IMG/VR virus record: IMGVR_UViG_2917393062_000004
Length of the DNA stretch: 41,075 nt
Direction: 5' to 3' (one strand)
DNA from: a virus
Lineage: Duplodnaviria; Heunggongvirae; Uroviricota; Caudoviricetes
The notes beneath the pieces were generated by a model, which was given only the letters and a program-made list of their open reading frames with translations, did no database searches and was not told the origin of the DNA. Both the position numbers and the translations under genes were made by a program. Shown here piece after piece: positions 19,609 to 40,420 of the stretch. Numbering within the stretch: position 1 is the first letter of the stretch; every line of letters begins with the position of its first letter.

Positions 19609-19634
19609 GAACCAGTTCCCACTGCCAGAGGGGA

Positions 19635-19694
19635 GGGGCGGGTCAAATCCCTGCGGCCTGACGTCTTCCGGACTGCCCGCCCCATCGTTTTTTT
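19635..19694 (+). other. Long GC-rich hairpin with T7 run between HNH and terminase genes (terminator-like; possible cos-region element)
   Basis: GGGGCGGG ... CCCGCCCC inverted repeat with about 33-nt loop followed by TTTTTTT. Confidence 0.35.
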
Positions 19695-19733
19695 ATACCC
19701 GCGAAAAATGAAATTTAACCAGGAGTGCCGCAT

Positions 19734-21958: not shown

Positions 21959-21969
21959 CTGAGGTAATT

Positions 21970-22152
21970 ATGATCATGCTGATTCTCGCGCCTCTGGTGG
22001 GCGTGCTGGGGGCGCTTTTGCTGGCGTATGGTGCCTGGCTGATTTATCCCCCGGCGGGGTTTGTTGTTGCCGGGGCGTTGTGTCTGTTCTGGTCGTGGCT
22101 GGTGGCGCGATATCTCGACCGTACACAGTCGTCTGTCGGCGGAGGTAAATAG
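21970..22152 (+). CDS. Small hydrophobic protein (60 aa, two predicted TM segments)
   Basis: GAGGTAA RBS; [46 protein letters not shown]; between terminase and portal. Confidence 0.45.
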
Positions 22153-23393
22153 TGTTCTTTTCGGGATTATTTCAACGAAAAAGTGACGCACCGGTGACCA
22201 CGCCAGCAGAGCTGGCGGATGCTATCGGGTTGTCCTACGACACCTATACCGGAAAGCAGATCAGCAGCCAGCGGGCCATGCGACTGACGGCGGTTTTTTC
22301 CTGTGTCAGGGTGCTGGCGGAGTCGGTCGGGATGTTGCCCTGCAACCTGTATCACCTGAACGGCAGCCTGAAGCAGAGAGCCACTGGCGAACGTCTGCAT
22401 AAGCTGATCTCCACGCATCCCAATGGCTATATGACGCCGCAGGAGTTCTGGGAGCTGGTGGTCACCTGTCTGTGCCTGCGGGGAAACTTTTACGCCTACA
22501 AAGTGAAAGCATTTGGCGAAGTGGCTGAACTGCTGCCCGTCGATCCCGGCTGTGTGGTACCGAAGCTTAACAGTAGCTGGGAGCCGGTCTATCAGGTCAC
22601 ATTCCCGGATGGCTCCACGGATGTACTGAGCCAGGAGGATATCTGGCATGTGCGCACGCTGACGCTGGACGGACTGGTGGGGCTGAATCCCATCGCCTAT
22701 GCCCGCGAGGCAATATCGCTGGCGGCAGCGACCGAAGAGCACGGGGCCAGACTGTTCAGCAATGGCGCGGTGACGTCGGGTGTGTTGCGTACAGAGCAGA
22801 CGCTGTCAGATCAGGCTTATGAGCGCCTGAAGAAAGATTTTGAGGAGCGTCACACCGGGCTTGGCAATGCTCACCGCCCGATGATCCTTGAGATGGGGCT
22901 GGACTGGAAGTCGATGGCGCTGAACGCCGAGGACAGCCAGTTCCTGGAAACCCGCAAGTTTCAGCTTGAAGAAATCTGTCGTCTGTTCCGGGTGCCGTTG
23001 CACATGGTGCAGAACACCGATCGCGCCACCTTCAACAATATCGAAGAGCTGGGGCTGGGATTTATCAACTATTCACTGGTGCCGTATCTGACCCGCATCG
23101 AACAGCGGATCAACACCGGACTGGTACGAAAAAGTAAGCAGGGCGTTTATTACGCCAAATTTAACGCCGGGGCGTTACTGCGCGGGGATATGAAGTCCCG
23201 TTTTGAAGCCTACGCCACCGGGATCAACTGGGGAATTTACTCTCCCAATGACTGCCGCGACCTGGAAGATATGAATCCACGTCCCGGTGGTGATGTCTAT
23301 CTCACACCGATGAACATGACCACGAAACCCTCCGATGGCAGTAAAGCCGGTAAGCAGAAGGATAACGCCAATGCAGACGAAACAACGTCTTGA
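22152..23393 (+). CDS. Portal protein (HK97 family)
   Basis: 413-aa ORF, GTG start with GGAGG RBS; position after TerL and before prohead protease. Confidence 0.85.
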   Translation: MFFSGLFQRKSDAPVTTPAELADAIGLSYDTYTGKQISSQRAMRLTAVFSCVRVLAESVGMLPCNLYHLNGSLKQRATGERLHKLISTHPNGYMTPQEFWELVVTCLCLRGNFYAYKVKAFGEVAELLPVDPGCVVPKLNSSWEPVYQVTFPDGSTDVLSQEDIWHVRTLTLDGLVGLNPIAYAREAISLAAATEEHGARLFSNGAVTSGVLRTEQTLSDQAYERLKKDFEERHTGLGNAHRPMILEMGLDWKSMALNAEDSQFLETRKFQLEEICRLFRVPLHMVQNTDRATFNNIEELGLGFINYSLVPYLTRIEQRINTGLVRKSKQGVYYAKFNAGALLRGDMKSRFEAYATGINWGIYSPNDCRDLEDMNPRPGGDVYLTPMNMTTKPSDGSKAGKQKDNANADETTS

Positions 23394-24021
23394 TGTACCG
23401 CTGAGTCTGAAATCTGTCAGTGACTCCGGTGAGTTTGAAGGGTATGGCTCCGTCTTTGGTGTAAAGGACAGCCACGATGATGTGGTGATGTCCGGGGCAT
23501 TTGCTGCTTCCCTGCGGGTGTGGAGTGACAGAAAAGCGTTACCTGCGCTGCTCTGGCAGCACCGCATGGATGAGCCCATCGGTGTTTACACCGAAATGAA
23601 GGAAGACGATGTCGGGCTTTACGTCAGGGGGCGGTTGCTCATTGATGATGATCCCCTGGCAAAACGCGCACATGCACACATGAAGGCCGGTTCGTTAACC
23701 GGCCTTTCTATTGGGTACGTCCTAAAGGACTGGGAATACGACCGGACGAAAGAAGCCTTTCTGCTGAAAGAAATCGACCTCTGGGAAGTCAGTCTGGTGA
23801 CATTCCCGTCTAACGACGAGGCGCGGATCAGCGACGTCAAGAACGCACTGGCCCGCGGGGAAATCCCCGAACAGAAAAAAATCGAAAGAGTCCTGCGTGA
23901 TGTCGGACTCTCCCGTACCCAGGCCAAAGCATTCATGGCCGGGGGCTATGGCGCACTGTCCCTGCGCGAGGCTGAGGATGTGGGCTCTGCACTGAATGCA
24001 CTGAAAAATCTGAACTTCTAA
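23371..24021 (+). CDS. Prohead maturation protease (HK97 family)
   Basis: Start at MQTKQRL overlapping portal stop; position between portal and capsid. Confidence 0.8.
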   Translation: MQTKQRLDVPLSLKSVSDSGEFEGYGSVFGVKDSHDDVVMSGAFAASLRVWSDRKALPALLWQHRMDEPIGVYTEMKEDDVGLYVRGRLLIDDDPLAKRAHAHMKAGSLTGLSIGYVLKDWEYDRTKEAFLLKEIDLWEVSLVTFPSNDEARISDVKNALARGEIPEQKKIERVLRDVGLSRTQAKAFMAGGYGALSLREAEDVGSALNALKNLNF

Positions 24022-24035
24022 TCAGGAGAAATACG

Positions 24036-25241
24036 ATGGCGGTTGATATTAAAGATGTCGAACAGGTCGCGCAGGAGCTGCAGCAGAAGTTTGACGACTT
24101 CAAAGCAAAGAACGACAAGCGCGTTGAGGCGATTGAGCAGGAAAAAGGCAAACTTGCCGGGCAGGTGGAAACCCTGAACGGAAAACTCAGCGAGCTGGAA
24201 AATCTCAAAAGCGACCTTGAAAAAGAGCTGCTTGAGCTGAAACGTCCGGCAGGTGGTGCGCAAAATAAACTGGCCACCGAGCATAAAGAAGCGTTTGTGG
24301 GCTTCCTGCGTAAAGGCCGTGAAGATGGTCTGCGCGATCTGGAGCGCAAGGCATTACAGGTGGGCACCGATGAAGACGGTGGCTATGCCGTGCCGGAAGC
24401 GCTGGATCGCAACATTCTGACCTTGCTGAAAGATGAAGTGGTGATGCGTCAGGAAGCCACGGTGATCACCGTTGGTGGTTCCGACTACAAAAAACTGGTG
24501 AATCTGGGCAGCACGGATTCCGGATGGGTTGGCGAGACTGACGCGCGCTCCCAGACTGCCACCTCAAAACTGGGGCTGATTGAACCTTTCATGGGGGAAA
24601 TCTACGGTAACCCGCAGGCCACCCAGAAAATGCTGGATGATGCCTTTTTCAACGTGGAGGCCTGGATCAACAGCGAGCTGGCAACCGAATTTGCCGAACA
24701 GGAAGAAATTGCCTTTACCACCGGCGATGGTACCAAGAAGCCGAAAGGGTTCCTGGCGTATGAATCCACGGATGAAACCGATAAGGTCCGGGCGTTCGGC
24801 AAACTTCAGCATATTGTATCCGGCGACGCGACTGCGGTGACCGCAGACGCCATTATCAAACTGATTTACACGCTGCGAAAGGCACACCGCACTGGCGCGA
24901 AGTTCATGATGAACAACAACAGCCTGTTTGCCATCCGTCTGCTGAAAGACACCGAGGGTAACTATCTGTGGCGTCCGGGGCTGGAACTGGGGCAGCCGTC
25001 CTCTCTGGCGGGTTACGGTATCGCTGAAAACGAACAGATGCCGGATATCGCCGCTGATGCGAAAGCCATTGCATTTGGTAACTTCAAACGGGGTTACACC
25101 ATCGTTGACCGTATCGGCACCCGCATTCTGCGTGATCCGTACACCAATAAACCGTTTGTCGGTTTTTATACCACCAAGCGCACCGGCGGGATGTTGGTCG
25201 ATTCGCAGGCCATCAAACTGCTGAAGATTGCAGCGGCGTAA
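24036..25241 (+). CDS. Major capsid protein (HK97 fold, N-terminal coiled-coil delta domain)
   Basis: 401-aa ORF with AGGAGA RBS; coiled-coil N-terminus then capsid core; followed by GC hairpin. Confidence 0.9.
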   Translation: MAVDIKDVEQVAQELQQKFDDFKAKNDKRVEAIEQEKGKLAGQVETLNGKLSELENLKSDLEKELLELKRPAGGAQNKLATEHKEAFVGFLRKGREDGLRDLERKALQVGTDEDGGYAVPEALDRNILTLLKDEVVMRQEATVITVGGSDYKKLVNLGSTDSGWVGETDARSQTATSKLGLIEPFMGEIYGNPQATQKMLDDAFFNVEAWINSELATEFAEQEEIAFTTGDGTKKPKGFLAYESTDETDKVRAFGKLQHIVSGDATAVTADAIIKLIYTLRKAHRTGAKFMMNNNSLFAIRLLKDTEGNYLWRPGLELGQPSSLAGYGIAENEQMPDIAADAKAIAFGNFKRGYTIVDRIGTRILRDPYTNKPFVGFYTTKRTGGMLVDSQAIKLLKIAAA

Positions 25242-25248
25242 TCATTCA

Positions 25249-25268
25249 GGGGCGCGGAACCGCGCCCC
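25249..25268 (+). terminator. GC-rich hairpin after major capsid gene (attenuator/terminator-like)
   Basis: GGGGCGCGG-AAC-CGCGCCCC followed by CTGTTCTG (weak U-tract). Confidence 0.4.
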
Positions 25269-25290
25269 CTGTTCTGACGGGTGAAGAATC

Positions 25291-25491
25291 ATGATCCTGA
25301 AACAAGATCTGAAATGGTCACCGGACGGTATGCGTGTTGAGGTCATTCGGGCCGGTGAGTATGACGACGGGGCGCTTCCTGCCCGGGTGCAGGAGATTGC
25401 ACTTCAGGCCGGGTTAGCTGAGCGCGGAACCAGTGCAAAAAGCAGTAAAGCGGCAAAAGAGAAAAAAGCCACGACCAGTAAAGAGAGCTGA
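25291..25491 (+). CDS. Hypothetical small head-module protein (66 aa)
   Basis: ORF between capsid and connector genes; Lys/Ser-rich C-terminus. Confidence 0.45.
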   Translation: MILKQDLKWSPDGMRVEVIRAGEYDDGALPARVQEIALQAGLAERGTSAKSSKAAKEKKATTSKES

Positions 25492-25493
25492 GT

Positions 25494-25817
25494 ATGCTTC
25501 TGACAATGGAAGAGATTAAAGCCCAACTCCGGCTGGATGAGGATTTCGATGCTGATGACCGCCATCTGCAACTGCTGGCCTGTGCGGCGCAAAAGCGGAC
25601 GGAAACGTATCTGAACCGGAAGCTCTATGCACCGGATGAATCCATTCCGGACAGCGATCCGGACGGGCTGCACCTGCCGGATGATATTCGTCTGGGGATG
25701 CTGATGCTTATCAGCCATTTTTACGAAAACCGCTCGTCGGTTACGGAAGTGGAGAAACTCGACATGCCGCAGAGTTTTGGCTGGCTTGTCGGCCCGTACA
25801 GGTACTTTCCGCAATGA
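25494..25817 (+). CDS. Head-tail connector (gp6-like)
   Basis: 107-aa ORF, conserved position; N-terminal MEEIKAQLRLD typical of gp6-like adaptors as recalled. Confidence 0.7.
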   Translation: MLLTMEEIKAQLRLDEDFDADDRHLQLLACAAQKRTETYLNRKLYAPDESIPDSDPDGLHLPDDIRLGMLMLISHFYENRSSVTEVEKLDMPQSFGWLVGPYRYFPQ

Positions 25818-26224
25818 AAATTCGTCAGGCGCAGACCAGCGCAACCTACATTCTGCCGGACCCCGGTGAACTGAATAAACGCGTCCTGATCCGCCTGCGG
25901 GTGGATATGCCCGCGGATAACTTTGGCGTGGAGTCTCAATACCCGGTTACGTTTCGGACATGGGCGAAGGTTATCCAGACCAGTGCCACCACCTGGCAGG
26001 AAACCGCGCAGACCGGGGACGCCATCACCCATTACATCACCATTCGTTACCGCCGGGGGATCACCGCTGATTATGAGGTGGTCTGCGGTGACAGTGTGTA
26101 CCGGGTGAAACGTCAGCGCGATCTGAACGGGGCGCGGCGCTTTCTGCTGCTGGAGTGTACGGAGCTGGGCGAATGTAGGCAGAGTCACGGAGGCAACAAT
26201 GACGACTTCCTTTTTGCACGTTGA
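25814..26224 (+). CDS. Head-tail joining / head closure protein
   Basis: 136-aa ORF overlapping neighbours; conserved position. Confidence 0.6.
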   Translation: MKIRQAQTSATYILPDPGELNKRVLIRLRVDMPADNFGVESQYPVTFRTWAKVIQTSATTWQETAQTGDAITHYITIRYRRGITADYEVVCGDSVYRVKRQRDLNGARRFLLLECTELGECRQSHGGNNDDFLFAR

Positions 26225-26705
26225 TTTTCAGCAGCCCGCGGAGATGCGCTTTAACCGCGCCCGTGTCCGGCGGGCGTTTGTCACGATTGGTCAGCGTCAT
26301 ATGCGTGATGCCCGTCGGCTGGTGATGCGCCGTGCGCGGTCGGCACCGGGTGAAAACCCCGGTTATCAGACCGGACGCCTGGCTCGTTCAATTGGTTACA
26401 TGGTACCCAGAGCCAGTAAACATCGCCCTGGTTTTATGGCACGTATAGCCCCTAACCAGCGTAATGGAGAGGGAAACCGCCGTATCACCGGTGATTTTTA
26501 TCCGGCTTTTTTGTTCTATGGCGTGAGGCGAGGGGCAAAGCGTCGTCGCAGCCATCATCGTGGTGCATCCGGTGGCAGCGGCTGGCGACTGGCTCCACGT
26601 AATAACTTCATGGTGGAAACTCTTGAAAAGAACCGCAGCTGGACACGCTATTTTCTGGCGCGGGAATTGCGTAAATCACTGAAGCCGGAGCGACGACACA
26701 GATGA
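26199..26705 (+). CDS. HK97 gp10-like tail-component protein
   Basis: 168-aa basic ORF with GGAGG RBS at conserved position. Confidence 0.55.
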   Translation: MTTSFLHVDFQQPAEMRFNRARVRRAFVTIGQRHMRDARRLVMRRARSAPGENPGYQTGRLARSIGYMVPRASKHRPGFMARIAPNQRNGEGNRRITGDFYPAFLFYGVRRGAKRRRSHHRGASGGSGWRLAPRNNFMVETLEKNRSWTRYFLARELRKSLKPERRHR

Positions 26706-27262
26706 AACTGACGCCTGTTATTGCTGCACTGCGTGCCCGCTGTCCATATTTTGAAAACCGGGTTGCAGGCGCGGCCCAGTTCAAAAATCTGCCGGAGGTC
26801 GGAAAGCTGAAACTCCCGGCGGCATATGTTGTACCGGGTGATGATTCTCCGGGAGAAAACAAAAGCCAGACCGACTACTGGCAGGAGCTGAAAGAGGGTT
26901 TCTCCGTGGTTGTCATACTGAGTAACGGGCATGATGAGCGCGGTCAGTTTGCCTCGTATGATGTGGTGGACGATGTCCGGCAGATGCTCTTTAAGGCTCT
27001 GCTGGGCTGGAACCCGGAGGCGTGCGGTAACCCGATTACCTATGACGGCGGCACGCTGCTGGATCTGAATCGTCATGAGCTGATTTATCAGTTCGATTTT
27101 TCGGTCATCAGCGAGCTGACTGAAGACGATACCCGCCAGCAGGATGATCTGAACAGTCTGGATGAACTGCAAACGCTGGCGATTGATGTTGATTATCTCG
27201 AGCCCGGTAACGGGCCTGACGGCGATATCGAACATCACACCGAAATAACCCTTCCTTCCTGA
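26702..27262 (+). CDS. Putative tail completion / tail terminator protein
   Basis: 186-aa acidic ORF immediately upstream of the sheath cluster. Confidence 0.5.
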   Translation: MKLTPVIAALRARCPYFENRVAGAAQFKNLPEVGKLKLPAAYVVPGDDSPGENKSQTDYWQELKEGFSVVVILSNGHDERGQFASYDVVDDVRQMLFKALLGWNPEACGNPITYDGGTLLDLNRHELIYQFDFSVISELTEDDTRQQDDLNSLDELQTLAIDVDYLEPGNGPDGDIEHHTEITLPS

Positions 27263-27270
27263 GGAGCCTC

Positions 27271-27441
27271 ATGTTTGTCAAACCTGTTAAAGGGCGGTCA
27301 GTTCCTGACCCTGCCCGCGGCGACCTTTTGCCCGCCGAAGGGCGAAATGTTGACGAGAACAACTACTGGCTGCGCCGTGAAGCAGCGGGTGATATCCGGC
27401 GCGTGAATAAAAAGGTGAATACCGATGACGATAAGCTTTAA
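27271..27441 (+). CDS. DUF2635-like small protein preceding tail sheath (56 aa)
   Basis: GAGGAG RBS 4 nt before ATG; MFVKPVKGRSVPDP...NNYWLRR resembles recalled DUF2635 proteins found before Mu-type sheath genes; below ORF-track length cutoff. Confidence 0.6.
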   Translation: MFVKPVKGRSVPDPARGDLLPAEGRNVDENNYWLRREAAGDIRRVNKKVNTDDDKL

Positions 27442-28921
27442 CACCATTCCGTCGAATACGCTGGTTCCGTTGTTTTATGCGGAAATGGATAACCAGGCGG
27501 CGAATACTGCACAGGACAGCGGAGCATCGCTGCTGATTGGTCATGCCAATAACGGTGCAGAGATTGTTGCCAACAGTCTGGTACTGATGCCGTCGGCAGA
27601 CTATGCACGCCTGATTTGTGGTGCGGGAAGTCAGCTGGCGCGTATGGTCGAGGCTTATCGCCAGACTGACCCGTTTGGCGAGCTGTATGTGATTGCCGTT
27701 CCTGAATCCACAGGCGCGGCGGCAACGGTTACGCTGACGGTGACCGGGGCGGCAACCGAAACCGGCACGGTGAATGTGTATGTGGGACGTACCCGCGTGC
27801 AGGCACCGGTGACCAATGGCGATAACGTCACGACGATTGCCAGCAGTATCCAGGATGCCATCAATGCCGTTCCGACCCTGCCGTTTACGGCCTCATCTTC
27901 GGCAGGCGTGGTCACACTGACCGCGCGTCATAAGGGGCTTTGCGGGAATGAAATTCCTGTCAGCCTCAATTACTACGGCTTTGGTGGGGGCGAAGTGCTG
28001 CCAGCGGGCGTACAGATTGCTGTGGCGACGGGTACCGCCGGAACGGGCGCTCCTGTTCTCACCGGTGCGGTGGCTGCAATGGCGGATGAGCCGTTTGATT
28101 ATATCGGTCTGCCGTTCAACGACACGGCCTCCGTTAACACGCTGGTGACCGAGATGAACGATACCAGCGGTCGCTGGAGCTATGCGCGTCAGCTGTATGG
28201 TCATGTGTATACGGCAAAGACCGGCACGCTGTCAGAACTGGTGACCGCAGGTGACCAGTTTAACCAGCAGCACATTACCCTGGCGGGGTACGAAAAAGAA
28301 ACCCAGACACCTGCCGACGAGCTGGCGGCAAGCCGTACCGCCCGCGCAGCGGTGTTTATCCGCAACGATCCGGCACGTCCCACGCAGACCGGTGAGCTGG
28401 TGGGTATGCTGCCTGCGCCGAAGGGGAAACGGTTCACGATGACAGAACAACAGACCCTGCTGTCTCATGGCGTGGCAACGGCGTATGTCGAAAGTGGGGT
28501 ACTGCGCATTCAGCGTGATGTCACCACGTACAGGAAAAACGCTTACGGGGTTGCGGATAACAGCTACCTCGACAGCGAGACGCTGCATACCAGTGCGTAT
28601 GTACTGCGCAAACTGAAATCCGTCATTACCAGTAAGTACGGGCGTCACAAGCTTGCCAGCGACGGTACCCGCTTTGGTCCCGGTCAGGCGATTGTCACCC
28701 CGGCGGTGATCAAAGGGGAACTGCTGGCAACCTACCGTCAGCTCGAGCGTGCGGGCATCGTGGAAAACTACGAACTCTTTAAGCAGTACCTGGTTGTGGA
28801 GCGTGATGCCAGCGATCCAAATCGCCTGAACACGCTGTTCCCACCTGACTATGTTAACCAGCTGCGTGTCTTTGCCGTGGTTAACCAGTTCCGTCTTCAG
28901 TATTCAGAGGAGTCCGCATAA
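27425..28921 (+). CDS. Tail sheath protein (Mu gpL-like)
   Basis: 498-aa ORF followed by tube, chaperone with frameshift, and tape measure. Confidence 0.8.
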   Translation: MTISFNTIPSNTLVPLFYAEMDNQAANTAQDSGASLLIGHANNGAEIVANSLVLMPSADYARLICGAGSQLARMVEAYRQTDPFGELYVIAVPESTGAAATVTLTVTGAATETGTVNVYVGRTRVQAPVTNGDNVTTIASSIQDAINAVPTLPFTASSSAGVVTLTARHKGLCGNEIPVSLNYYGFGGGEVLPAGVQIAVATGTAGTGAPVLTGAVAAMADEPFDYIGLPFNDTASVNTLVTEMNDTSGRWSYARQLYGHVYTAKTGTLSELVTAGDQFNQQHITLAGYEKETQTPADELAASRTARAAVFIRNDPARPTQTGELVGMLPAPKGKRFTMTEQQTLLSHGVATAYVESGVLRIQRDVTTYRKNAYGVADNSYLDSETLHTSAYVLRKLKSVITSKYGRHKLASDGTRFGPGQAIVTPAVIKGELLATYRQLERAGIVENYELFKQYLVVERDASDPNRLNTLFPPDYVNQLRVFAVVNQFRLQYSEESA

Positions 28922-29277
28922 TGGCCCGTATCGGGGGAACCTGTTATTTCAAAATTGACGGTCAGCAGCTATCGCTGACCGGCGGCATTGAGGTGCCCAT
29001 GAACAAAACGGTTAATGATGACATCATCGGTCTGGACGGTTCAGTGGACCGCAAGGAAACTCACCGTGCACCTTATGTCAAAGGGACCTTCAAGGTACCG
29101 AAGAATTTTCCGGTGAGCAAAATCACCTCGTCTGATGAGATGACCATCACTGCCGAGCTGGCGAACGGTCAGGTCTATGTATTGTCGTCCGCCTGGCTGC
29201 ACGGCGAAGCGAACCATAATGCCGAAGAAGGCACGGTTGATCTTGAGTTCCACGGTGAAGAAGGGGATTACCAGTAA
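28921..29277 (+). CDS. Tail tube protein (Mu gpM-like)
   Basis: 118-aa ORF directly after sheath. Confidence 0.75.
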   Translation: MARIGGTCYFKIDGQQLSLTGGIEVPMNKTVNDDIIGLDGSVDRKETHRAPYVKGTFKVPKNFPVSKITSSDEMTITAELANGQVYVLSSAWLHGEANHNAEEGTVDLEFHGEEGDYQ

Positions 29278-29546
29278 TGAAAGAGCTTGAGTTAAAGAAA
29301 CCGATTATCGCTCATGGTGAGACACTCTCCGTACTGGAGTTTGATGAACCCACCGGGAAGGATGTCCGCGAGCTGGGGTATCCCTACCAGATGAATCAGG
29401 ATGAGTCCGTCAGACTTCTGGCGCATGTGGTGTCGAAATACATTGTGCGGCTGGCGAAAGTGCCGCAAAGCTCTGTCGACCAGATGTCTCCGGCAGACCT
29501 GAATGCAGCGGCGTGGCTTGTGGCTGGTTTTTTCCTCCAGGCCTGA
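29277..29546 (+). CDS. Tail assembly chaperone (short form); long form by -1 frameshift extends to 29695
   Basis: 89-aa ORF followed by an overlapping -1 frame ORF (29513-29695) and slippery heptamer T_TTT_TTC. Confidence 0.75.
   Translation: MKELELKKPIIAHGETLSVLEFDEPTGKDVRELGYPYQMNQDESVRLLAHVVSKYIVRLAKVPQSSVDQMSPADLNAAAWLVAGFFLQA
29528..29534 (+). promoter_or_regulatory. Programmed -1 ribosomal frameshift slippery site (T_TTT_TTC)
   Basis: Heptamer in correct register in the chaperone 0 frame; downstream -1 frame open to 29695, ending just after the tape measure start. Confidence 0.7.
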
Positions 29547-29687
29547 CGGCTGAATACCTCACTGATCGCTTCTTTGACTGCGCCAGCTACTGGCGCATTA
29601 ATCCCTTCGAATTGCTGAATATGCCGATCAGTGAAATTCCCTTGCTGGTCAGTCAGGCAAACAGGATAGAGCAGGAGAAACGCACAC

Positions 29688-31520
29688 ATGGCTGAATTTG
29701 AGCTTAAGGCGTTGATCACCGGTGTCGACAGGCTTTCACCCGCGCTGTCGAAAATGCAAAAGAAAATCCGGGGATTTAAACGCCAGGCGGAAGAAGCGTC
29801 ACAGGGTGGGCTGGCGCTTGGTGGAGGACTGGCAGCGGGGCTGACGCTTTCCCTGAAATCTTATGCCGATCAGGAAAACGCCGCCACCGGGCTGAAAGTC
29901 GCCATGATGGATGCGAATGGCGAGGTTGGAAAGAGCTTTCAGGACATCAATAAACTGGCTATTGGCCTGGGTAACCAGCTTCCCGGTACAACGGCTGATT
30001 TCCAGAACATGATGCAGATGCTGGTGCGTCAGGGGATCCCGGCAGAAAACATTCTGGGTGGTGTGGGTAAAGCGACAGCTTATCTTGCGGTACAACTGAA
30101 AAAAACACCGGAAGCGGCTGCTGAGTTTGCTGCAAAGATGCAGGATGCTACCGGAACGGCGTCAGAAGACATGATGGGGCTGTTCGACACTATCCAGAAG
30201 GCGTTTTATCTGGGCGTTGACGATACCAACATGTTGTCCTTCTTCACTAAAACCAGCTCTGTTCTGAAGATGGTGAATAAGGACGGTCTTCAGGCTGCAC
30301 AGAGTCTTGCCCCCATCAGTGTCATGATGGATCAGATGGGGATGAACGGGGAGTCGGCAGGTAATGCCCTGCGAAAAGTTATCCAGTCCGGATTAAGCGT
30401 TAAGAAAATCAGGGACGTCAATAAAATCATGGCCCGCCAGAAACTCGGGGTACAGCTCGATTTTACTGATGGCAAAGGGAGTTTTGGCGGTCTTGATAAC
30501 ATGTTTAAGCAACTGGCAAAGCTGCGAAAACTGACCGACGTTAAGCGAACAGGTGTACTTAAGGCAATATTTGGTGATGATGCCGAAACCCTTCAGGTGG
30601 TCAATGCTCTGATCGATAAAGGAAAGGATGGTTACGATCAGATCCAGCAGAAGATGAATAAACAGGCCAGCCTGAATAAACGTGTTCAGGCACAGCTTGG
30701 TACGCTGTCCAACCTGTGGGAGGCAATGACGGGGACCGCAACTAACGGTCTTGCAGCTATTGGCGGCGCATTTTCTGGTGACGCTAAAAATATCACGCAA
30801 TGGCTGGGGGAGTTGGGGGAAAAATTCACGAAGTTTGCGGATGAAAATCCCCGGGTTATTCGCGGCGTCGTCGGGCTTGCTGCCGGTCTTGCGATTCTGA
30901 AACTGGGATGGATGGGCGTGGGCAGTGCCATCAGTATTGTCAGCAGGATCATGTCGATGACGCCGATTGGCATGATTGCGACGGCGATTGCTCTGGCTGC
31001 GGGATTAATTATCACTAACTGGGATGTTGTCGGACCTTATTTCAAGAAGCTCTGGGAAACCATTGGTCCTTATTTTGAGGCTGGCCGGGAACTTCTGAAG
31101 AAGGTTTTTGCCTGGTCGCCGCTGGGGATGGTGATCAATAACTGGGGACCGGTTGTTAAGTGGTTTCAGGATATGTGGGATAAGCTGAAGCCGATTATTG
31201 AATGGTTTACCGACAGTTCCGGTGACACGGACGATACCATTAACTCGGCGCAGTGGGGCGCGGGTGCTTATGATGCTTATGGGACGGGAATACCGGCACG
31301 GGGATACACTCCTTATCCGGCGGTGGATCCGGCTCAGGCAAACAACGCCTCCGATGCCACAGGCTCGAATCCCTTCATGATTAATAAAGCTACCGCGCCA
31401 AAAGTTGATGGTGAGATCAAGGTATCATTTATAAATATGCCACCAGGTATGCGGGTTACGGAAACACGCTCCAGTGGCATTGATATAAATCACGATGTTG
31501 GCTATACCCGATTTTGGTAG
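29688..31520 (+). CDS. Tail tape measure protein
   Basis: 610-aa ORF with Gly/Ala-rich hydrophobic segments; position after chaperone. Confidence 0.85.
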   Translation: MAEFELKALITGVDRLSPALSKMQKKIRGFKRQAEEASQGGLALGGGLAAGLTLSLKSYADQENAATGLKVAMMDANGEVGKSFQDINKLAIGLGNQLPGTTADFQNMMQMLVRQGIPAENILGGVGKATAYLAVQLKKTPEAAAEFAAKMQDATGTASEDMMGLFDTIQKAFYLGVDDTNMLSFFTKTSSVLKMVNKDGLQAAQSLAPISVMMDQMGMNGESAGNALRKVIQSGLSVKKIRDVNKIMARQKLGVQLDFTDGKGSFGGLDNMFKQLAKLRKLTDVKRTGVLKAIFGDDAETLQVVNALIDKGKDGYDQIQQKMNKQASLNKRVQAQLGTLSNLWEAMTGTATNGLAAIGGAFSGDAKNITQWLGELGEKFTKFADENPRVIRGVVGLAAGLAILKLGWMGVGSAISIVSRIMSMTPIGMIATAIALAAGLIITNWDVVGPYFKKLWETIGPYFEAGRELLKKVFAWSPLGMVINNWGPVVKWFQDMWDKLKPIIEWFTDSSGDTDDTINSAQWGAGAYDAYGTGIPARGYTPYPAVDPAQANNASDATGSNPFMINKATAPKVDGEIKVSFINMPPGMRVTETRSSGIDINHDVGYTRFW

Positions 31521-31548
31521 GCAGGATTCCCCTCACATGTATTGCTGG

Positions 31549-31576
31549 TTGTAAGTCATAAATAGAGTGATAGAAT
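31549..31576 (+). promoter_or_regulatory. Candidate sigma70 promoter with extended -10 for the tail-module moron
   Basis: -35 TTGTAA, 16-bp spacer, TGaTAGAAT extended -10 about 35 nt before the ATG. Confidence 0.4.
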
Positions 31577-31611
31577 TAATGCACATTTAGAAAAATGTTA
31601 ATAGGCGAAAA

Positions 31612-32142
31612 ATGAAAGGCTATATCACAGCAAGTGTAATTCTTGGAGCAGCGGCTATTTTTTCATCTCTCATAATCTCTGGCAACATCTCCTTTAAAGA
31701 TGAACATATTATTCAGTTATCTGGAGGAGCCATAAAACTTGGTGATGTTTATAAAGAAAATAAATTGATAAGTGCAAAGATTATTTTTCCAGATAATCAG
31801 GGTGAACAGATTCTTGTTGTCGACGGCAATCCTGAAAACTTTAAGGAGGATTTTCAGGAGAAATTAAATAAAGTAATAAAAACTTTAAATGCGTCAAAGA
31901 AAAAAGATGAAGAGAAAGTTAGCCTGGATAATTTAAGTGTTATTGAAGAGTCTAAACTAGAGCTCGTTTCTGCGGTGCGTTACTCTGCTCAGTATGTTCC
32001 TATGTTTACTCTGACGCTGGACAAAAAAGAAATTACCATGCCTAAAAATACGGTAATATTTCCATTTGCCAGCGATGAAACAGCTAAGTATTTAAATGAA
32101 CAACAGCAAAAGTATAAAGATTCGTTGTTTCTGACTCGCTAA
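31612..32142 (+). CDS. AT-rich moron: exported/membrane-anchored hypothetical protein (176 aa)
   Basis: N-terminal signal/TM segment (ITASVILGAAAIFSSLIISG); GC about 30 percent; own promoter and strong terminator; between tape measure and baseplate genes. Confidence 0.65.
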   Translation: MKGYITASVILGAAAIFSSLIISGNISFKDEHIIQLSGGAIKLGDVYKENKLISAKIIFPDNQGEQILVVDGNPENFKEDFQEKLNKVIKTLNASKKKDEEKVSLDNLSVIEESKLELVSAVRYSAQYVPMFTLTLDKKEITMPKNTVIFPFASDETAKYLNEQQQKYKDSLFLTR

Positions 32143-32159
32143 TTAATAAAATTCATTAC

Positions 32160-32190
32160 AAGGCCACCTTCTAATAGGTGGCTTTTTTAT
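32160..32190 (+). terminator. Intrinsic terminator of the moron
   Basis: AAGGCCACC-TTCTAATA-GGTGGCTT followed by TTTTTT. Confidence 0.8.
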
Positions 32191-32203
32191 TTTCGGAGTG
32201 TAT

Positions 32204-33532
32204 ATGACGTGGAAAGACAGGCTTCAGGATGCGTCATTTCGAGGTGTGCCGTTTAAGGTTGAAGAAGAAAGTGCGGGAACCGGTCGCCGTGTGGAAACAC
32301 ATGAATACCCGAACCGCGACAAGCCCTATACCGAAGATCTGGGAAAAGTCACTTTCCGCCCGTCCATCACAGCTTATGTGGTGGGAGATGACTGCTTTGA
32401 CCAGCGCGATCGCCTGATTGAAGCGCTGAATAAACCAGGTCCCGGCACGCTTGTCCACCCGACATATGGTGAGCTGAAAGTCTGTGTTGACGGGGAAGTT
32501 CGGGTCAGCACATCGAAAAGTGAAGGGCGTATTGTCCGCTTTGACCTGAAGTTTGTCGAAGCGGGAGAACTCTCTTACCCCACATCAGGCGTGGCGACGG
32601 CGCAGACGCTGATGTCATCCTGTTCTGCACTGGATGACTGCATCAGTGACAGCTTCAGCGGTTTCAGTATCGATGGCGTGGCGGATTTTGTGCAGAACGA
32701 CGTTATCGGTAATGCCAGCACAATGCTTGGGTATGTTTCTGATGCGATGAAAGTGGTGGATTCTGCTGTATCGGATGCCGCCAGGCTGTTGCAGGGGGAT
32801 ATCTCGGTACTTATGCCGCCGCCATCGTCAGGAAAAAATTTCGTTGAGCAGGTGCAGAAAATGTGGCGTACCGGGAAACGCCTTTATGGTAACGCCAGCG
32901 ACCTGGTCACCATGATCAAAACGCTTTCTGGTGTCAGCCTCGGCAGCGATTTGCAACCGCGCGGCGTCTGGAAAACGGACAGTAAAACCACCGCCACAGC
33001 GACGCAGCAGCGTAACATGGTTGCCAGCACCCTTCGTACGACTGCAATCAGCGAAGCGGCGTATGCCGTTACCCGATTGCCTGCGCCAACAACTTCTGCG
33101 GTGATGCAGAATGCCGCAGTGGGGCAGTCAACAACACCCGCGCAGAGCTCCGGCTGGCCTGCCGTCACGCATCCGGTGCTGAACAATGCACCGGCGGTGA
33201 AAAACACGGTTGACCTGCCAACGTGGGAAGAACTGACCGACATTCGCGACACACTGAATACGGCAATTGATAAGGAGTTGTCCCGTACAACCAGTGATGC
33301 GCTGTTTCTGGCGCTGCGCCGGGTGAAAGCAGATCTGAATGCGGATATCAACACGCGCCTTGAACAGTCTGCTCGGATCATTCAGCGCACGCCGGATGAG
33401 GTTTTACCCGCGCTGGTGCTGGCGGCGACTTGGTTTGATAACGCGGCGCGTGACGCGGACATTATCCGGCGTAATGCCATTACGCATCCCGGCTTTGTGC
33501 CGGTGATCCCTCTGAAGGTGCCAGTGCAATGA
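32204..33532 (+). CDS. DNA circulation protein (Mu gpN-like)
   Basis: N-terminal MTWKDRLQDASFRGVPF recalled as Mu N family signature; GGAG RBS before ATG at 32204. Confidence 0.75.
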   Translation: MTWKDRLQDASFRGVPFKVEEESAGTGRRVETHEYPNRDKPYTEDLGKVTFRPSITAYVVGDDCFDQRDRLIEALNKPGPGTLVHPTYGELKVCVDGEVRVSTSKSEGRIVRFDLKFVEAGELSYPTSGVATAQTLMSSCSALDDCISDSFSGFSIDGVADFVQNDVIGNASTMLGYVSDAMKVVDSAVSDAARLLQGDISVLMPPPSSGKNFVEQVQKMWRTGKRLYGNASDLVTMIKTLSGVSLGSDLQPRGVWKTDSKTTATATQQRNMVASTLRTTAISEAAYAVTRLPAPTTSAVMQNAAVGQSTTPAQSSGWPAVTHPVLNNAPAVKNTVDLPTWEELTDIRDTLNTAIDKELSRTTSDALFLALRRVKADLNADINTRLEQSARIIQRTPDEVLPALVLAATWFDNAARDADIIRRNAITHPGFVPVIPLKVPVQ

Positions 33533-34608
33533 ACGACAATGTCACGCTACGGGTAAATGGCCGGGAGTGGAATGGCTGGACATCGGTGCGCATCGGTGCC
33601 GGTATTGAACGGCTGGCGCGGGATTTCAGTGTGGAGATCACCCGCCAGTGGCCGGGAGATGAGGGTATCACCACGCTTCAGCCGCGCATTAAAAACGGTT
33701 CAAAAGTGGAAGTGCTGATTGGTGATGAGCTGGTGATCACCGGCTGGGTGGAGGCGACTCCCGTTCGTTACGATGCCCGTTCGGTCAGCACCGGTATTGC
33801 CGGACGTAGTCTGACCGCTGACCTGATTGACTGTGCAGCCGAACCGACACAGTTTAACGGACGATCGCTGGTACAGATTGCGCAGGCGCTTGCTGCGCCT
33901 TTCGGCATTGAGGTGGTGAACAACGGTGCGCCGTCGGGCGTTATTCCTGATGTCCAGCCTGATCACGGCGAAACGGTGATTGAGGTGATCAACAAAATAC
34001 TCGGTCAGCAGCAGGCACTGGCTTACGACGACCCGCACGGCAGGCTGGTGATTGGCGGTATTGGCTCAACGCGGGCACATACCGCGCTGGTACTCGGGGA
34101 AAACATCCTTTCCTGCGATACGGAGAAGAGTATCCGGGAGCGGTTTTCTGTTTACCAGGTGGCGGGGCAGCGTGCCGGAAACGACGATGATTTCGGTGAG
34201 GCCACCACCACCGCGCTGCGGGCCCGCACAGAGGACGCATTTATTTCCCGTTACCGTCCGATGTATATCAGGCAGACAGGGCAGGCCACGGGGGCAGGCT
34301 GTATTGCCCGTGCTGACTTTGAAGCCCGACAACGGGCGGCGCGGACGGATGAAACCACCTATGTGGTGCAGGGCTGGCGACAGGGTAACGGTACGCTGTG
34401 GCAGCCCAACCAGCGGGTGATTGTCTTCGATCCGGTCTGTGGTTTCGACAATACCGAACTGCTTGTCTCGGAAGTCACGTTTACTCAGGACCAGAACGGC
34501 ACCCTGACGGAAATCCGTGTCGGCCCACCTGATGCTTATCTGCCTGAACCCGAAGCCCCCGGCGCGCGGAAAAAGAAAAAAGCCAGAGTACAGGAGGACC
34601 CGTTCTGA
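33529..34608 (+). CDS. Baseplate hub protein (Mu gpP-like)
   Basis: 359-aa ORF at the conserved position after N. Confidence 0.7.
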   Translation: MNDNVTLRVNGREWNGWTSVRIGAGIERLARDFSVEITRQWPGDEGITTLQPRIKNGSKVEVLIGDELVITGWVEATPVRYDARSVSTGIAGRSLTADLIDCAAEPTQFNGRSLVQIAQALAAPFGIEVVNNGAPSGVIPDVQPDHGETVIEVINKILGQQQALAYDDPHGRLVIGGIGSTRAHTALVLGENILSCDTEKSIRERFSVYQVAGQRAGNDDDFGEATTTALRARTEDAFISRYRPMYIRQTGQATGAGCIARADFEARQRAARTDETTYVVQGWRQGNGTLWQPNQRVIVFDPVCGFDNTELLVSEVTFTQDQNGTLTEIRVGPPDAYLPEPEAPGARKKKKARVQEDPF

Positions 34609-35156
34609 TGAGTACGATTGAAGCCATGCAGCGACAACTCCTCGGCCTGATTGGGCGGGCCGTGGTGAAAAGCATCAGTGCCGCCACGAAATGTCAGACC
34701 GTGGATGTGTCCCTGATTGCCGGTGAACCCAAAGCCGGGGTTGAACATCTTGAACCCTACGGTTTTACCGCAAGGGCAAACAGCGGTGCGGAAGCGGTGG
34801 TGTTGTTTCCGGATGGCGACCGTTCTCATGCGGTGGTTGTTACGGTGTCGGACCGGCGCTACCGCCTGAAAGGGCTGCAGACGGGTGAGGTGGCTGTCTA
34901 TGACGATCAGGGGCAGTCCGTGACGCTGACCCGGGAGGGGATCGTGGTGGACGGTGCAGGTAAAACGATCACGTTTTGCAATTCACCTAAAGCACGTTTT
35001 GAAATGGACCTTGAAGTGACCGGACAGGTGAAAGACCTGTGCGACTCCGGCGGCACCACCATGTCAGCGATGCGGCTTGCCTATAACGGGCATCGTCACA
35101 GAGAGAACGGTCAGGGCAGTAACACCGACAAACCTGATAAAGCGATGGAGGCATGA
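34608..35156 (+). CDS. Baseplate spike/assembly protein (Mu gp45 / V-like)
   Basis: 182-aa ORF; conserved order. Confidence 0.65.
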   Translation: MSTIEAMQRQLLGLIGRAVVKSISAATKCQTVDVSLIAGEPKAGVEHLEPYGFTARANSGAEAVVLFPDGDRSHAVVVTVSDRRYRLKGLQTGEVAVYDDQGQSVTLTREGIVVDGAGKTITFCNSPKARFEMDLEVTGQVKDLCDSGGTTMSAMRLAYNGHRHRENGQGSNTDKPDKAMEA

Positions 35157-35582
35157 TGGAACTGTGGCTGACGGTGAACGGTAAACGCACCTGCGCCAGC
35201 GCACCGCTGGATCCGCTGACCCGCGCCGTGGTGATTTCCCTGTTTACCTGGCGGCGGGCGGAGCCTGATGACAATGCCGACGTCCCGATGGGATGGTGGG
35301 GGGATACCTGGCCTGCGGTGACAGAATGACCGTTACGGCTCCCGACTGTGGCTGCTTCAGCGCAGCAAACTGACCAATCAACTGGTGCAGACGGTAAGGG
35401 GGTATATCCGCGAATGCCTGCAATGGATGATTGATGACGGCGTGGTGTCCCGTATTGATCTGGATATCCGCCGCACCGGGATTAATGAACTGGGTAACAG
35501 TATCACTCTCTGGCGTCGTGACGGACCGGTAATGATTTCTTTTGATTATCTGTGGAGTGCGATAACGCATGGCGGACAGTGA
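35156..35582 (+). pseudogene. Baseplate gp46-like gene split by a frameshift (N-part 35156-35329, C-part in another frame to 35582)
   Basis: N-part carries SLFTWRRAE...GWWGD, C-part carries GSRLWLL...[10 protein letters not shown]...FDYLWSA; frames can only be joined within about 35322-35326. Confidence 0.6.
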
Positions 35583-36627
35583 ATTTCAGCGCCCGACGCT
35601 GGCAGAAAATATCAGTATGCTCCGTAACGATTTATTCGCCAGGCTGGACGTCAGCGACACGCTCCGGCGCATGGATGAAGACGTGCGGGCAAAGGTGTAT
35701 GCGGCGGCGCTGCATACGGTTTACGGGTACATCGATTATCTGGCAATGAACATGCTGCCTGACCTGTGCGATGAGTCCTGGCTGGCGCGACATGCTGCGA
35801 TGAAACGGTGTCCGCGCAAGGGGGCCACGGCTGCCAGCGGGTATATGCGCTGGGAAGGTGTCAGCGATGGCCTGAAGGTGACCGCCGGAAGTGTTATTCA
35901 GCGCGATGACCTGGTTCAGTACACGGCAACTGCCGATGCAACCAGCACCGGTGGTGTCCTGCGCGTGCCGATCGCCTGCTCAAGTGCAGGCGCGGTCGGT
36001 AACGCTGACGACGGTACGTCATTAATCCTGGTCACGCCGGTTAATGGTCTGCCGTCTTCCGGCGAGGCAGATACCCTGACAGGTGGATTTGATACTGAAG
36101 AGCTGGAAACGTGGCGCGCCCGCGTCATTGAGCGGTATTACTGGACGCCTCAGGGCGGGGCTGACGGGGACTATGTCGTCTGGGCTAAAGAAGTGCCCGG
36201 CATTACCCGCGCATGGACATACCGACACTGGATGGGAACGGGGACTGTCGGTGTGATGATTGCCAGCAGTGACCTGATTAACCCCATTCCGGAAGAATCA
36301 ACGGAAACGGCGGCAAGACAACATATCGAGCCACTGGCCCCGGTGGCAGGCTCTGATTTGTATGTATTCAGGCCGGTGGCGCACAAAGTGGATTTTCATA
36401 TCCGCGTGACGCCGGACACACCGGAAATACGGGCTGCCATCACCGCGGAGTTGCGTTCATTCCTGCTGCGTGATGGTTATCCGCAGGGAGAGCTTAAGGT
36501 ATCGCGTATCAGTGAAGCGATTTCCGGTGCGAACGGGGAATACAGCCATCAGTTGCTTGCTCCGGCGGACAATATCTCCATTGCAAAAAATGAACTGGCG
36601 GTACTGGGGACGATTTCATGGACGTGA
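35569..36627 (+). CDS. Baseplate J-like protein (Mu gp47-like)
   Basis: 352-aa ORF; conserved order. Confidence 0.75.
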
Positions 36628-37208
36628 CAAACGATGATTACATCCGCCTGTTATCGGCACTGTTGCCGCCCGGTCCGGCGTGGTCAGCCAGCGATCCGGC
36701 GATTGCCGGTGCGGCACCGTCATTAACCCGTGTTCATCAGCGTGCGGATGCCCTGATGCGGGAGCTGGATCCGCGCACCACCACTGAACTGATAAACCGC
36801 TGGGAGCGTCTGTGCGGTCTGCCGGATGAATGTATTCCGGCGGGAACGCAGACCCTTCGCCAGCGTCAGCAACGGCTGGATGCGAAGGTTAACCTGGCGG
36901 GCGGCATCAACGAGGATTTTTATCTTGCACAGCTTGCTGCCCTGGGCAGACCAGATGCCACCATCACGCGATACGACAAAAGCACGTTCACCTGCTCATC
37001 GGCCTGTACTGACGCGGTGAATGCGCCGGAATGGCGGTATTACTGGCAGGTCAACATGCCAACCACCACCAACACCAACACCACCTGGATGACATGTGGC
37101 GATCCCTGTGATTCCGCACTGCGTATCTGGGGTGACACCGTTGTCGAGTGTGTGCTTAACAAACTCTGCCCGTCGCATACCTACGTAATTTTTAAATATC
37201 CGGAGTAA
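36618..37208 (+). CDS. Tail protein gp48-like (DUF2313 / YmfQ-like)
   Basis: 196-aa ORF directly preceding the tail fibre gene. Confidence 0.65.
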
Positions 37209-37211
37209 TCC

Positions 37212-37955
37212 ATGCATCGTATAGACACGAAAACCGCGCAGAAGGATAAGTTCGGCGCGGGTAAGAACGGTTTTACCCGTGGTAACCCCCAGACTGGCAC
37301 GCCTGCCACCGATCTGGATGATGACTACTTTGATATGTTGCAGGAAGAACTCTGCAGCGTGGTGGAGGCATCCGGTGCCAGCCTGGAGAAGGCGCGGCAC
37401 GACCAGTTGCTTACCGCGCTTCGTGCGCTGCTGTTAAGCCGCAAGAATCCGTTTGGCGATATCAAATCGGATGGCACGGTGAAAACGGCTCTCGAAAACC
37501 TTGGTTTGGGAGAAGCGGCAAAACGGAATGTGGGCAACGGGGAAAACCAAATCCCTGATATGTCTTTCTGGACGGTTACTGGTGGCAATGGAAATTTTGT
37601 GATTCGTCAACCTGACGGGCTAATCACTCAGATGGTTACTGTAAGTATAAGCGGTCCAGTGGCGATGAATGGAATGACTGATAATGCTTATGCCATTACA
37701 GGTTCTAATAAGTCTTATATTGCCACAGCCACATTGCCCTTTGTATTTCCTAATAAGGTGCTGGGCGTTATCCCTCTGGTATCAACAACAACCTATGGTG
37801 GTGTATCCAGTAATATTACAGGTTCATACGCGACGGCGGTTTGTTCTTTTGCCGCTGTCCGGGGGAATAATACGATTGTATTCAAAGTCGACAAACCACT
37901 GAATGCAGCCTTTCCTTCAGATACCAGCGTCTCAGCGTTAATCATTGGACGGTAA
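37212..37955 (+). CDS. Tail fibre protein: constant N-terminal part plus currently expressed variable C-terminal part
   Basis: N-terminus MHRID...[21 protein letters not shown] typical of Mu S/P2 H-type fibres; crossover site inside the gene at about 37490-37515. Confidence 0.8.
37490..37515. repeat. Left crossover site of invertible segment (gix/pix/hix-like)
   Basis: ctctcgaaaaccttggtttgggagaa; 21/26 identical to the reverse complement of the right site, including a perfect GGTTTGGGAGAA core. Confidence 0.7.
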
Positions 37956-37957
37956 TA

Positions 37958-38401
37958 ATGAACTCAGTATTCTTTTCACCCGGAAGTAAAAGTTTTTATC
38001 TACAAGAATTGTTTCCAGAATATGAGGATGCGGGAACGCTTCCAGATGATGTTATTGAAATTACCCGAGAAACATATGAGCAATTTCTTGGGCTGCATCC
38101 AGAAGGGAAAGAAATTGGCGCTGACAGTTCAGGACGGCCAATATGGATTAATTCCCCACCGCCTTCAAAAGAGGATGAGGTGTTGATGGCTGAAATGAAA
38201 AAAATATCTTTGGTTTCAGAAGCCAATACCTACATCAACACCCATCAGTGGCCTGGCAAAGCTGCTATTGGTCGTCTGAAAGGTAACGAGCTGGAGCAAT
38301 ATAATTTATGGCTGGATTATCTAGACGCACTGGAACTGGTTGATCCCTCCAGTGCTCCAGATATTGAATGGCCTACGCCTCCGGCAGTTCAGGCCAGATG
38401 A
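37958..38401 (+). CDS. Tail fibre assembly protein (Tfa, U-like)
   Basis: 147-aa ORF after the fibre gene; convergent 3' overlap with alternative Tfa. Confidence 0.75.
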   Translation: MNSVFFSPGSKSFYLQELFPEYEDAGTLPDDVIEITRETYEQFLGLHPEGKEIGADSSGRPIWINSPPPSKEDEVLMAEMKKISLVSEANTYINTHQWPGKAAIGRLKGNELEQYNLWLDYLDALELVDPSSAPDIEWPTPPAVQAR

Positions 38402-38975
38402 CATTCGGCGCGGTGCTGGTATCTGTTGCCGTCACCGCGTCAATGTAATCCAGCACAGCGTTAAGCCGGGTTGTTTCTGCCTGCGTCAGTTTCCGTCCGG
38501 CCTGTAATTTCAGCTGAATCAGACTAATGGAAGCCATTGCAGCATCAATCAGTGACTGGCGCTGTGCTTCTGCCGCGTCTACTGCGGCGCTATGCTGTGC
38601 CTCAGTATCGGTCACCCATTTCTCACCATCCCATTTATCGTATGGCGTTAATGGGGCGATAGTGGTTGTATTTTCAGGGTAATCACCCGGAGCTGTGATT
38701 TCTTTTGATTCTCCTGTTTCAGTGCTATAGACCGTTTCACCGCGATGGTCTGGCACATATTCCCATGAGTTAAAATCTGCAGAACGGCAAATTGCATAAC
38801 CAGCTTTATATGAGCCAGGAGCATCTAAACAGGAACTTGCCGGGATACCGACGCCGACAGCGATATATTCATTTGATGTGGAAATATATTCCCGTGTTTC
38901 GCCATCATAGTTATAGACGGTAATATTCCCCGCCTTCGTGGCAATAAGCTCGATATTTAATACGGCTTTATTCAT
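38373..38975 (-). CDS. Alternative tail fibre assembly protein (U'-like)
   Basis: 200-aa ORF inside the invertible segment; C-terminal region similar to the plus-strand Tfa (TAPNVIWPELPEA vs SAPDIEWPTPPAV). Confidence 0.7.
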   Translation of the reverse strand: MNKAVLNIELIATKAGNITVYNYDGETREYISTSNEYIAVGVGIPASSCLDAPGSYKAGYAICRSADFNSWEYVPDHRGETVYSTETGESKEITAPGDYPENTTTIAPLTPYDKWDGEKWVTDTEAQHSAAVDAAEAQRQSLIDAAMASISLIQLKLQAGRKLTQAETTRLNAVLDYIDAVTATDTSTAPNVIWPELPEA

Positions 38976-39421
38976 CAGGCTGCCCTCACGATATAGTTAA
39001 ATGCAATATTCCGTGGGCGAGTATCGGCAGGAACGACATACATTTCACCAATTGCCCGCTCATTAGAGTTGTTCAGCAATAGGCTTGAGCCATTACTGTC
39101 ATGACCCGTAATTAAGATATCATTGGACAAAATAAGTGAGCCTGTACCTGCAGGAATACCATAAATTCCCATATCAAATTTAATATAACCAACACGCGCG
39201 CTCTGTGCAGACATAACGCTGCGACCAGTATCTACTGAACGACCGTCATCCCAGCCACGAATAAACTCACCGCGTAAATCAGGCAATTTATTTGTCGGGT
39301 AAGCCTTTGCCAGTTCTGGGTATTCTTCAGCGGAAAAAGCCGCACCATTGCATTTCAGCCAGCCTGTTGGCGGAGTGGCTGAAGGCCACGGAACAGGGAC
39401 ACCAACAGGTAATGCAGAGCC
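38975..39421 (-). CDS. Alternative tail fibre variable C-terminal domain (S'v-like), expressed only after inversion
   Basis: Tail-collar-like motif (LPVGVPVPWPSATPPTGWLKCNGAAF); no independent N-terminus; reads through the right crossover site; shares GLGE junction with the constant part. Confidence 0.65.
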   Translation of the reverse strand, partial: GSALPVGVPVPWPSATPPTGWLKCNGAAFSAEEYPELAKAYPTNKLPDLRGEFIRGWDDGRSVDTGRSVMSAQSARVGYIKFDMGIYGIPAGTGSLILSNDILITGHDSNGSSLLLNNSNERAIGEMYVVPADTRPRNIAFNYIVRAA

Positions 39422-39447
39422 TTCTCCCAAACCAACGTTTATGAAAA
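39422..39447. repeat. Right crossover site of invertible segment
   Basis: ttctcccaaaccaacgtttatgaaaa; resembles recalled hixL (TTCTTGAAAACCAAGGTTTTTGATAA); inverted copy of the left site. Confidence 0.7.
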
Positions 39448-39501
39448 TGCAGAAATAACGAGCAAATGGCATCATTCCTGCTTTTGTCAGGGAGATCCAC
39501 C

Positions 39502-40056
39502 ATGCTTATTGGCTATGTACGCGTATCAACAAATGACCAGAACACCGATCTACAACGTAATGCGTTGAACTGTGTAGGATGTGAACTGATTTTTGAAGAC
39601 AAGATAAGCGGTACGAAGTCCGAAAGGCCCGGACTGAAAAAACTGCTCAGGACATTATCGGCAGGTGACACTCTGGTTGTCTGGAAGCTGGACAGGTTGG
39701 GGCGCAGTATGCGGCATCTTGTTACGCTGATAGAAGAGTTGCGCCAGCGTGGCGTGAATTTCCGAAGCCTGACTGACAGTATTGATACCAGTACCCCAAT
39801 GGGCCGTTTCTTTTTTCATGTCATGGGAGCCCTGGCTGAAATGGAACGAGAACTGATTGTTGAACGAACAAAAGCTGGACTGGAAGCTGCTCGCGCACAG
39901 GGACGAATTGGTGGACGTCGTCCCAAACTTACACCAGAACAATGGGCGCAGGCCGGGCGATTAATTGCATCAGGCGTTCCTCGCCAGAAGGTGGCGATCA
40001 TCTATGATGTTGGTGTATCGACACTGTATAAGATGTTTCCGGTCGGAGATAAATGA
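39502..40056 (+). CDS. Serine DNA invertase (Pin/Gin/Hin/Cin family)
   Basis: N-terminal MLIGYVRVSTNDQNTDLQ with catalytic Ser; resolvase domain and C-terminal HTH; next to inverted crossover sites. Confidence 0.92.
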   Translation: MLIGYVRVSTNDQNTDLQRNALNCVGCELIFEDKISGTKSERPGLKKLLRTLSAGDTLVVWKLDRLGRSMRHLVTLIEELRQRGVNFRSLTDSIDTSTPMGRFFFHVMGALAEMERELIVERTKAGLEAARAQGRIGGRRPKLTPEQWAQAGRLIASGVPRQKVAIIYDVGVSTLYKMFPVGDK

Positions 40057-40395: not shown

Positions 40396-40420
40396 ATGAT
40401 ATGATATGATATGATATGAT
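40396..40420. repeat. Pentanucleotide tandem repeat (ATGAT)x5 in the upstream region of the terminal cargo gene
   Basis: Five perfect tandem units about 28 nt before the ATG at 40449; units contain -10-like TATGAT hexamers. Confidence 0.85.

Follow-up and report, generated by a model that had tools for sequence, protein, structure and literature searches.

Organization of the gp46 locus

The window (the whole stretch of 41,075 nucleotides analysed here) begins with proA (1-1254), the tRNA-Thr gene thrW and an integrase gene on the minus strand (1459-2622), and then continues into a temperate phage. The element is of the SfV/SfII/SfI type, has a Mu-like contractile tail and is integrated at thrW. 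Its baseplate genes follow the gp45-gp46-gp47 order of the Mu-like tail module, which is the same in SfI, SfV, SfII and E. coli (Table 1). The start of gp46 overlaps the stop of gp45, as it does in SfI, SfV and the E. coli relatives, and the ATG of gp47 overlaps the gp46 stop in turn. The gene family, its function and this type of prophage are already known. As deposited, the gp46 gene of the window is not a single uninterrupted frame of ~141 aa; it is split at position 35320.

Table 1 Features of the gp46 locus in the window.
Feature	Position	Strand	Details
gp45-type baseplate spike, upstream	34608..35156	+	182 aa, intact; PF06890 on identical protein
gp46 N-terminal fragment, baseplate wedge gene	35156..35329	+	57 aa ending WPAVTE; stop TGA 35327-35329
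Inserted G, cause of the frameshift	35320	+	Alignment: GCGGT[G]ACAG vs GCGGTACAG in relatives
Only possible join, both frames open	35322..35326	+	5 nt; flanking TGA stops
gp46 C-terminal part, +1 frame	35322..35582	+	86 codons; stop TGA 35580-35582
gp47/J-type baseplate wedge, downstream	35569..36627	+	352 aa, intact; ORF list

The first-pass annotation, made from the letters alone, had described a gp46-family gene lying in two different frames, and profile searches confirmed this. The N-terminal fragment matches PF07409 (GP46) at profile positions 1-36 (E 7e-9, 36 bits) and the C-terminal fragment at positions 37-100 (E 1e-19, 70.8 bits), while the repaired 141-aa protein covers positions 1-100 with 113.3 bits; both fragments and the repaired protein exceed the curated cut-off of 28.6 bits. 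Since the two fragments abut exactly in the profile, at 36/37, they represent one gene that has been split and not a chance resemblance. The gene also matched PHROG 180, ‘baseplate wedge subunit’ (E 2e-54), and the solved Mu gp46 chain 9ki1_A, ‘Baseplate protein gp46’ (E 8e-15, query residues 19-125). At the nucleotide level it is 98-99% identical to the genes of SfI, SfII and SfV. PF07409, PHROG 180 and the position between gp45 and gp47 are common to the window gene, Mu gp46 (PDB 9ki1 chain A), SfV orf18, SfI gp20 and SfII_20.

The first of the two frames runs from the ATG at 35156, or from an ATG at 35153 that would give 58 aa, and the second is closed by a TGA at 35319-35321. This TGA and the stop of the first frame bear out the earlier claim that the frames can be joined only within 5 nt, and no slippery heptamer is present there, again as claimed. 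We aligned the gene with those of SfI, SfV, SfII, phage vB_EcoM-689R6 and E. coli prophages, and this comparison with intact homologs, which had been proposed as a check, traced the frameshift to a single inserted G. The window gene differs from intact alleles by this one extra G alone, hence the two frames. The G lies outside any homopolymer, and a run of six G residues 17 nt upstream was called correctly. Inspection by eye revealed no convincing quasi-palindrome or direct repeat that could have templated it. As a product of its own, the C-terminal fragment would be 65 aa long from the first possible start, a GTG at 35385, which has no Shine-Dalgarno sequence; a protein look-up found no record of this product anywhere.

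A single frame is the normal arrangement of gp46

Among 269 complete copies of gp46 that we fetched from relatives, 266 encode a protein of 140-142 aa in one frame. The other three (L181, L191 and L242; ~1%) are disrupted at other sites, in each case upstream of the equivalent of 35320. The same arrangement was seen from the neighbouring genes: the listed places that hold proteins identical to the gp45, gp47, gp48, tail-fibre and 176-aa moron proteins of the window carry a 141- or 142-aa gp46, except for two that are the source contig of the window. The public collection has 3,380 blocks with the exact gp47 protein, and a 141-aa gp46 adjoins it in 10 of the 10 matches listed. The first-pass annotation had named homologs that normally have two separate genes as a finding that would refute it. 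We found no point in support of two small genes as the norm in this phage group, and the single frame in the relatives, the gp46 length beside the identical neighbours and the cut midway through the PF07409 profile rule it out.

The nearest relatives, the prophages in L037, L040 and L041, are 99.94% identical to the window over 4.9 kb, and within gp46 the extra G is the only difference from them. They also share the Tyr codon allele at 35547. We had considered this D-to-Y change as a sign of relaxed selection and dropped it, as it is common to the intact genes in L037, L038, L040 and L041. Intact gp46 with the Tyr allele of the window was found in 47 contigs, and the common allele in at least 1,000.

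The extra G itself is extremely rare. It was present in 0 of 1,102 complete E. coli records with this region, and pattern scans of metagenome contigs, IMG/VR contigs and GTDB species representatives yielded no copy of the +G version, whereas the wild-type 23-mer was found in both metagenome and IMG/VR contigs, at least 120 of each. One 20-mer match among the GTDB species representatives, in a Cellulophaga MAG, was disregarded, as about one is expected by chance in 596 Gb. For ten other common variants of the gp46 N terminus, the corresponding frameshifted ending had no record.

Other breaks in gp46 came up in these searches. In several E. coli assemblies (P0007, P0010, P0013 and P0014), the N-terminal fragment is normal up to WWGD, at about window position 35306 and just after the G6 run, and continues into unrelated residues such as IRSNPCIV, which suggests that gp46 has undergone insertions or rearrangements in other strains. 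Separately, dozens of draft contigs (P0003, P0004, P0008 and others) end at gp46 residues 57-59, corresponding to window positions 35326-35332 and thus lying nearly on the frameshift. We considered these endings as a hot spot and set this aside; they are most likely assembly-graph breaks, which we infer to arise ~55 nt past a common SNP at gene nucleotide 120 in genomes with several SfV-like prophages.

The remainder of the prophage is undecayed

We then compared the gp46 break with the condition of the rest of the element. An E. coli prophage aligns colinearly with 18.3 kb of the window (19258-37566), and in this alignment the G at 35320 is the sole indel whose length is not a multiple of three. 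In a comparison of the structural module with that of SfII, it was again the sole frame-breaking indel. The source annotation shows an unbroken run of genes from 1459 to 11254, from the integrase to a RusA-type resolvase, and the remaining prophage genes have full-length candidates in the ORF list. The several disrupted or deleted phage genes (for head, packaging, lysis or integration) expected of a decaying or cryptic prophage or of a tailocin precursor were not found in the window, and with no other frame-breaking indel in the 18.3 kb the element gives no indication of decay or of a tailocin-like state.

The prophage and its surroundings differ in how closely they match E. coli. In complete E. 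coli genomes, positions 1-1500 (proA, thrW and the end of the integrase gene) have a best whole-length match of 96.4% identity, while the baseplate module (32617-37515) is 99.94% identical to the prophages in L037, L040 and L041 in spite of a clade II Escherichia host, and identical tail proteins are found in complete E. coli genomes. These sequence comparisons point to a recent movement of the prophage across the species boundary.

Three further observations concern variable parts of the element. First, a 176-aa ORF without a Pfam match lies at 31612-32142, between the tape-measure and DNA-circularisation genes. SfI, SfII and SfV have nothing at this position, in other relatives the junction is occupied by a 148-aa tRNA_anti-like ORF on the opposite strand, and the public collection has 14,059 blocks with the exact 176-aa protein; the junction is apparently a hot spot for the insertion of additional genes. 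Second, an invertible tail-fibre segment at 37212-40056 comprises a fibre gene, two convergent tail-fibre assembly genes and an alternative fibre C-terminus, together with a Pin-type invertase (39466-40056). The part from 37496 to 39020 aligns in the opposite orientation in L037, a near-identical prophage, and the segment therefore appears to flip. Third, 15 nt at 40406-40420 (ATGATATGATATGAT) are missing from L037 and L038, which are otherwise 98-99% identical here; they look like a short tandem-repeat expansion in the intergenic region upstream of a 208-aa ORF at 40449.

Both carriers of the extra G come from Ion Torrent-only assemblies

The window is 100% identical to PDHZ01000026.1, a contig of the Escherichia cryptic clade II strain E4930, which was isolated from sediment in Hong Kong. 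The source record annotates no protein between gp45 and gp47. The proA-thrW junction has an exact match in Logan contig L029 from SRR6148342. The E4930 assembly PDHZ00000000 was built with MIRA and SPAdes from Ion Torrent single-end reads only, at 100x coverage, and consists of 78 contigs (PMC6639607). The strain was later sequenced on a PacBio RSII, and a Canu assembly of 10 contigs was obtained (PMC7716201). A contig numbered 26 cannot come from an assembly of 10 contigs, and PDHZ01000026.1 is thus not from the PacBio assembly.

In a collection of 15 billion proteins, the 57-aa product ending in AVTE was found in one contig only, LEKZ01000190.1 of E. coli D92/09, a strain from a Brazilian patient. 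This was the only other carrier of the extra G that we found, and no carrier from another platform was found. D92/09 was also sequenced on Ion Torrent only, with a PGM at 16.5x coverage, and its assembly lists 5,893 coding sequences in 5.08 Mb (PMC4588619), a count that we read as inflated by frameshifts. The baseplate module of D92/09 differs from that of the window at 151 of 5,336 sites (~3%), eight of them within gp46. With this divergence, the G common to the two carriers was not inherited with the prophage. Ion Torrent-only assemblies make up a small minority of Escherichia assemblies.

A real insertion would disable the tail

If the G were real, it would be a very recent insertion in E4930 that truncates gp46 at 57 aa. 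In Mu, gp46 is a required structural part of the baseplate, where six copies sit on top, pair with the arms of the first sheath ring and start the assembly of the sheath (PMC11915804). Given this role, a 57-aa stub would block tail assembly: the wedge would lack baseplate wedge protein 1, polymerisation of the sheath would not start, and induction would yield DNA-filled heads without working contractile tails, from a prophage that is newly defective and otherwise undecayed. The lost translational coupling might lower the expression of gp47 as well.

We consider a real insertion unlikely. The G does stand in the deposited consensus at 100x, and the absence of an annotated protein between gp45 and gp47 fits a pseudogene call. 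The ~1% of relatives that are disrupted elsewhere in the gene also indicate that inactivation of gp46 occurs, or is at least reported. However, a real insertion requires the coincidence that the identical G is present in an unrelated prophage known from Ion Torrent data only, and nowhere else. It would also have come without accompanying substitutions, in an allele otherwise identical to intact genes and in a prophage that is otherwise undamaged.

A systematic sequencing error as the most probable source of the extra G

The first-pass annotation had offered two readings of the split gene: a sequencing error, or an inactivating indel in a tail-defective prophage evolving towards a tailocin or a cryptic state. 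The first is favoured and the second disfavoured by three results taken together, namely that both carriers come from Ion Torrent-only assemblies, that the other relatives are intact and that the rest of the prophage is undecayed. An identical non-homopolymer insertion in two unrelated prophages, both of them sequenced by Ion Torrent only, is best accounted for by a systematic error specific to the platform. From the assembled consensus sequences, we infer that the G at 35320 is a platform-specific high-frequency indel error, with a probability of about 80%. According to this explanation, a spurious G would have been called in the Ion Torrent-only draft of E4930, the real DNA would encode gp46, which is baseplate wedge protein 1 or the sheath initiator, at its normal length of 141 aa, and the tail module of the prophage would be functional.

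High-frequency indels (HFI) have been described for Ion Torrent as single-base errors that affect a high proportion of the reads at set positions of the reference (PMC3623719). Only 29% of them lie in homopolymers, and they result in frameshifts in assemblies (PMC3623719). The G in the window resembles them in that it is a single base outside a homopolymer, adjoins the 2-mer GG, has entered the consensus, shifts the frame and is found in independent Ion Torrent data sets. It differs from them in its base and in its recurrence, because published HFI insertions are more often A or T and most HFI sites are run-specific, even though HFI errors recur between runs above chance (PMC3623719). Recurrence of one site in two laboratories, as seen here, is therefore not the usual case.

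We also simulated the flows at this site. With an assumed PGM flow order, which makes the result a plausibility argument only, an empty G flow falls between T and A, right after GG, in 360 of 360 forward reads, and a matching exposure occurs in 31 of 360 reverse reads. A base caller could take out-of-phase signal in such a flow for an additional G. Several points speak against the error. Mainly one strand is exposed in the simulation, which alone would not win the consensus; at 100x coverage, most reads must carry the G; and the site lies outside a homopolymer while the G6 run upstream was called correctly.

The presence of the same G in two diverged prophages could alternatively mark a hot spot of recurrent mutation, or a site of leaky +1 recoding (GGUGA-CA-GAA-UGA-C). 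The G would then have arisen independently in clade II Escherichia from sediment in Hong Kong and in E. coli from a Brazilian patient, and the production of the sheath initiator would be lowered or switched on and off in SfV-type prophages, with some full-length gp46 still made. We regard this as highly improbable, although some features speak for recoding. The stop is UGA-C, a context in which termination is weak, as at prfB; the insertion creates a GGUGA, complementary to the 3' end of 16S rRNA, just upstream; and a virion needs only six copies of gp46. The prfB gene (RF2) combines a +1 shift and an in-frame UGA-C stop with an upstream SD-like element and a slippery CUU-U-type codon. The window resembles it in the +1 shift that is needed, the in-frame UGA-C and the SD-like element just upstream, but it lacks a slippery codon of this type as well as conservation, and its SD-like element, 2 nt upstream of GAA, was made by the insertion itself.

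At the join, none of the three codons that could occupy the P site (GUG, ACA and GAA) re-pairs in the +1 frame, the downstream RNA folds no better than shuffled sequences (z -0.9), and a search of Rfam gave no match. The frameshifted arrangement is not conserved, being absent from all relatives checked except one Ion Torrent draft. In addition, the site has no repeat tract that would permit reversible slippage.

Implications

Most probably, gp46 is not truly interrupted in the DNA. If the G were real after all, an unremarkable and very recent knockout would have removed an essential baseplate protein from a single strain, which is of local interest only. If it is an artefact, a prophage ‘pseudogene’ in a draft assembled from Ion Torrent data alone is no evidence of domestication, and an identical false frameshift can recur in unrelated genomes and thereby mimic convergent evolution.
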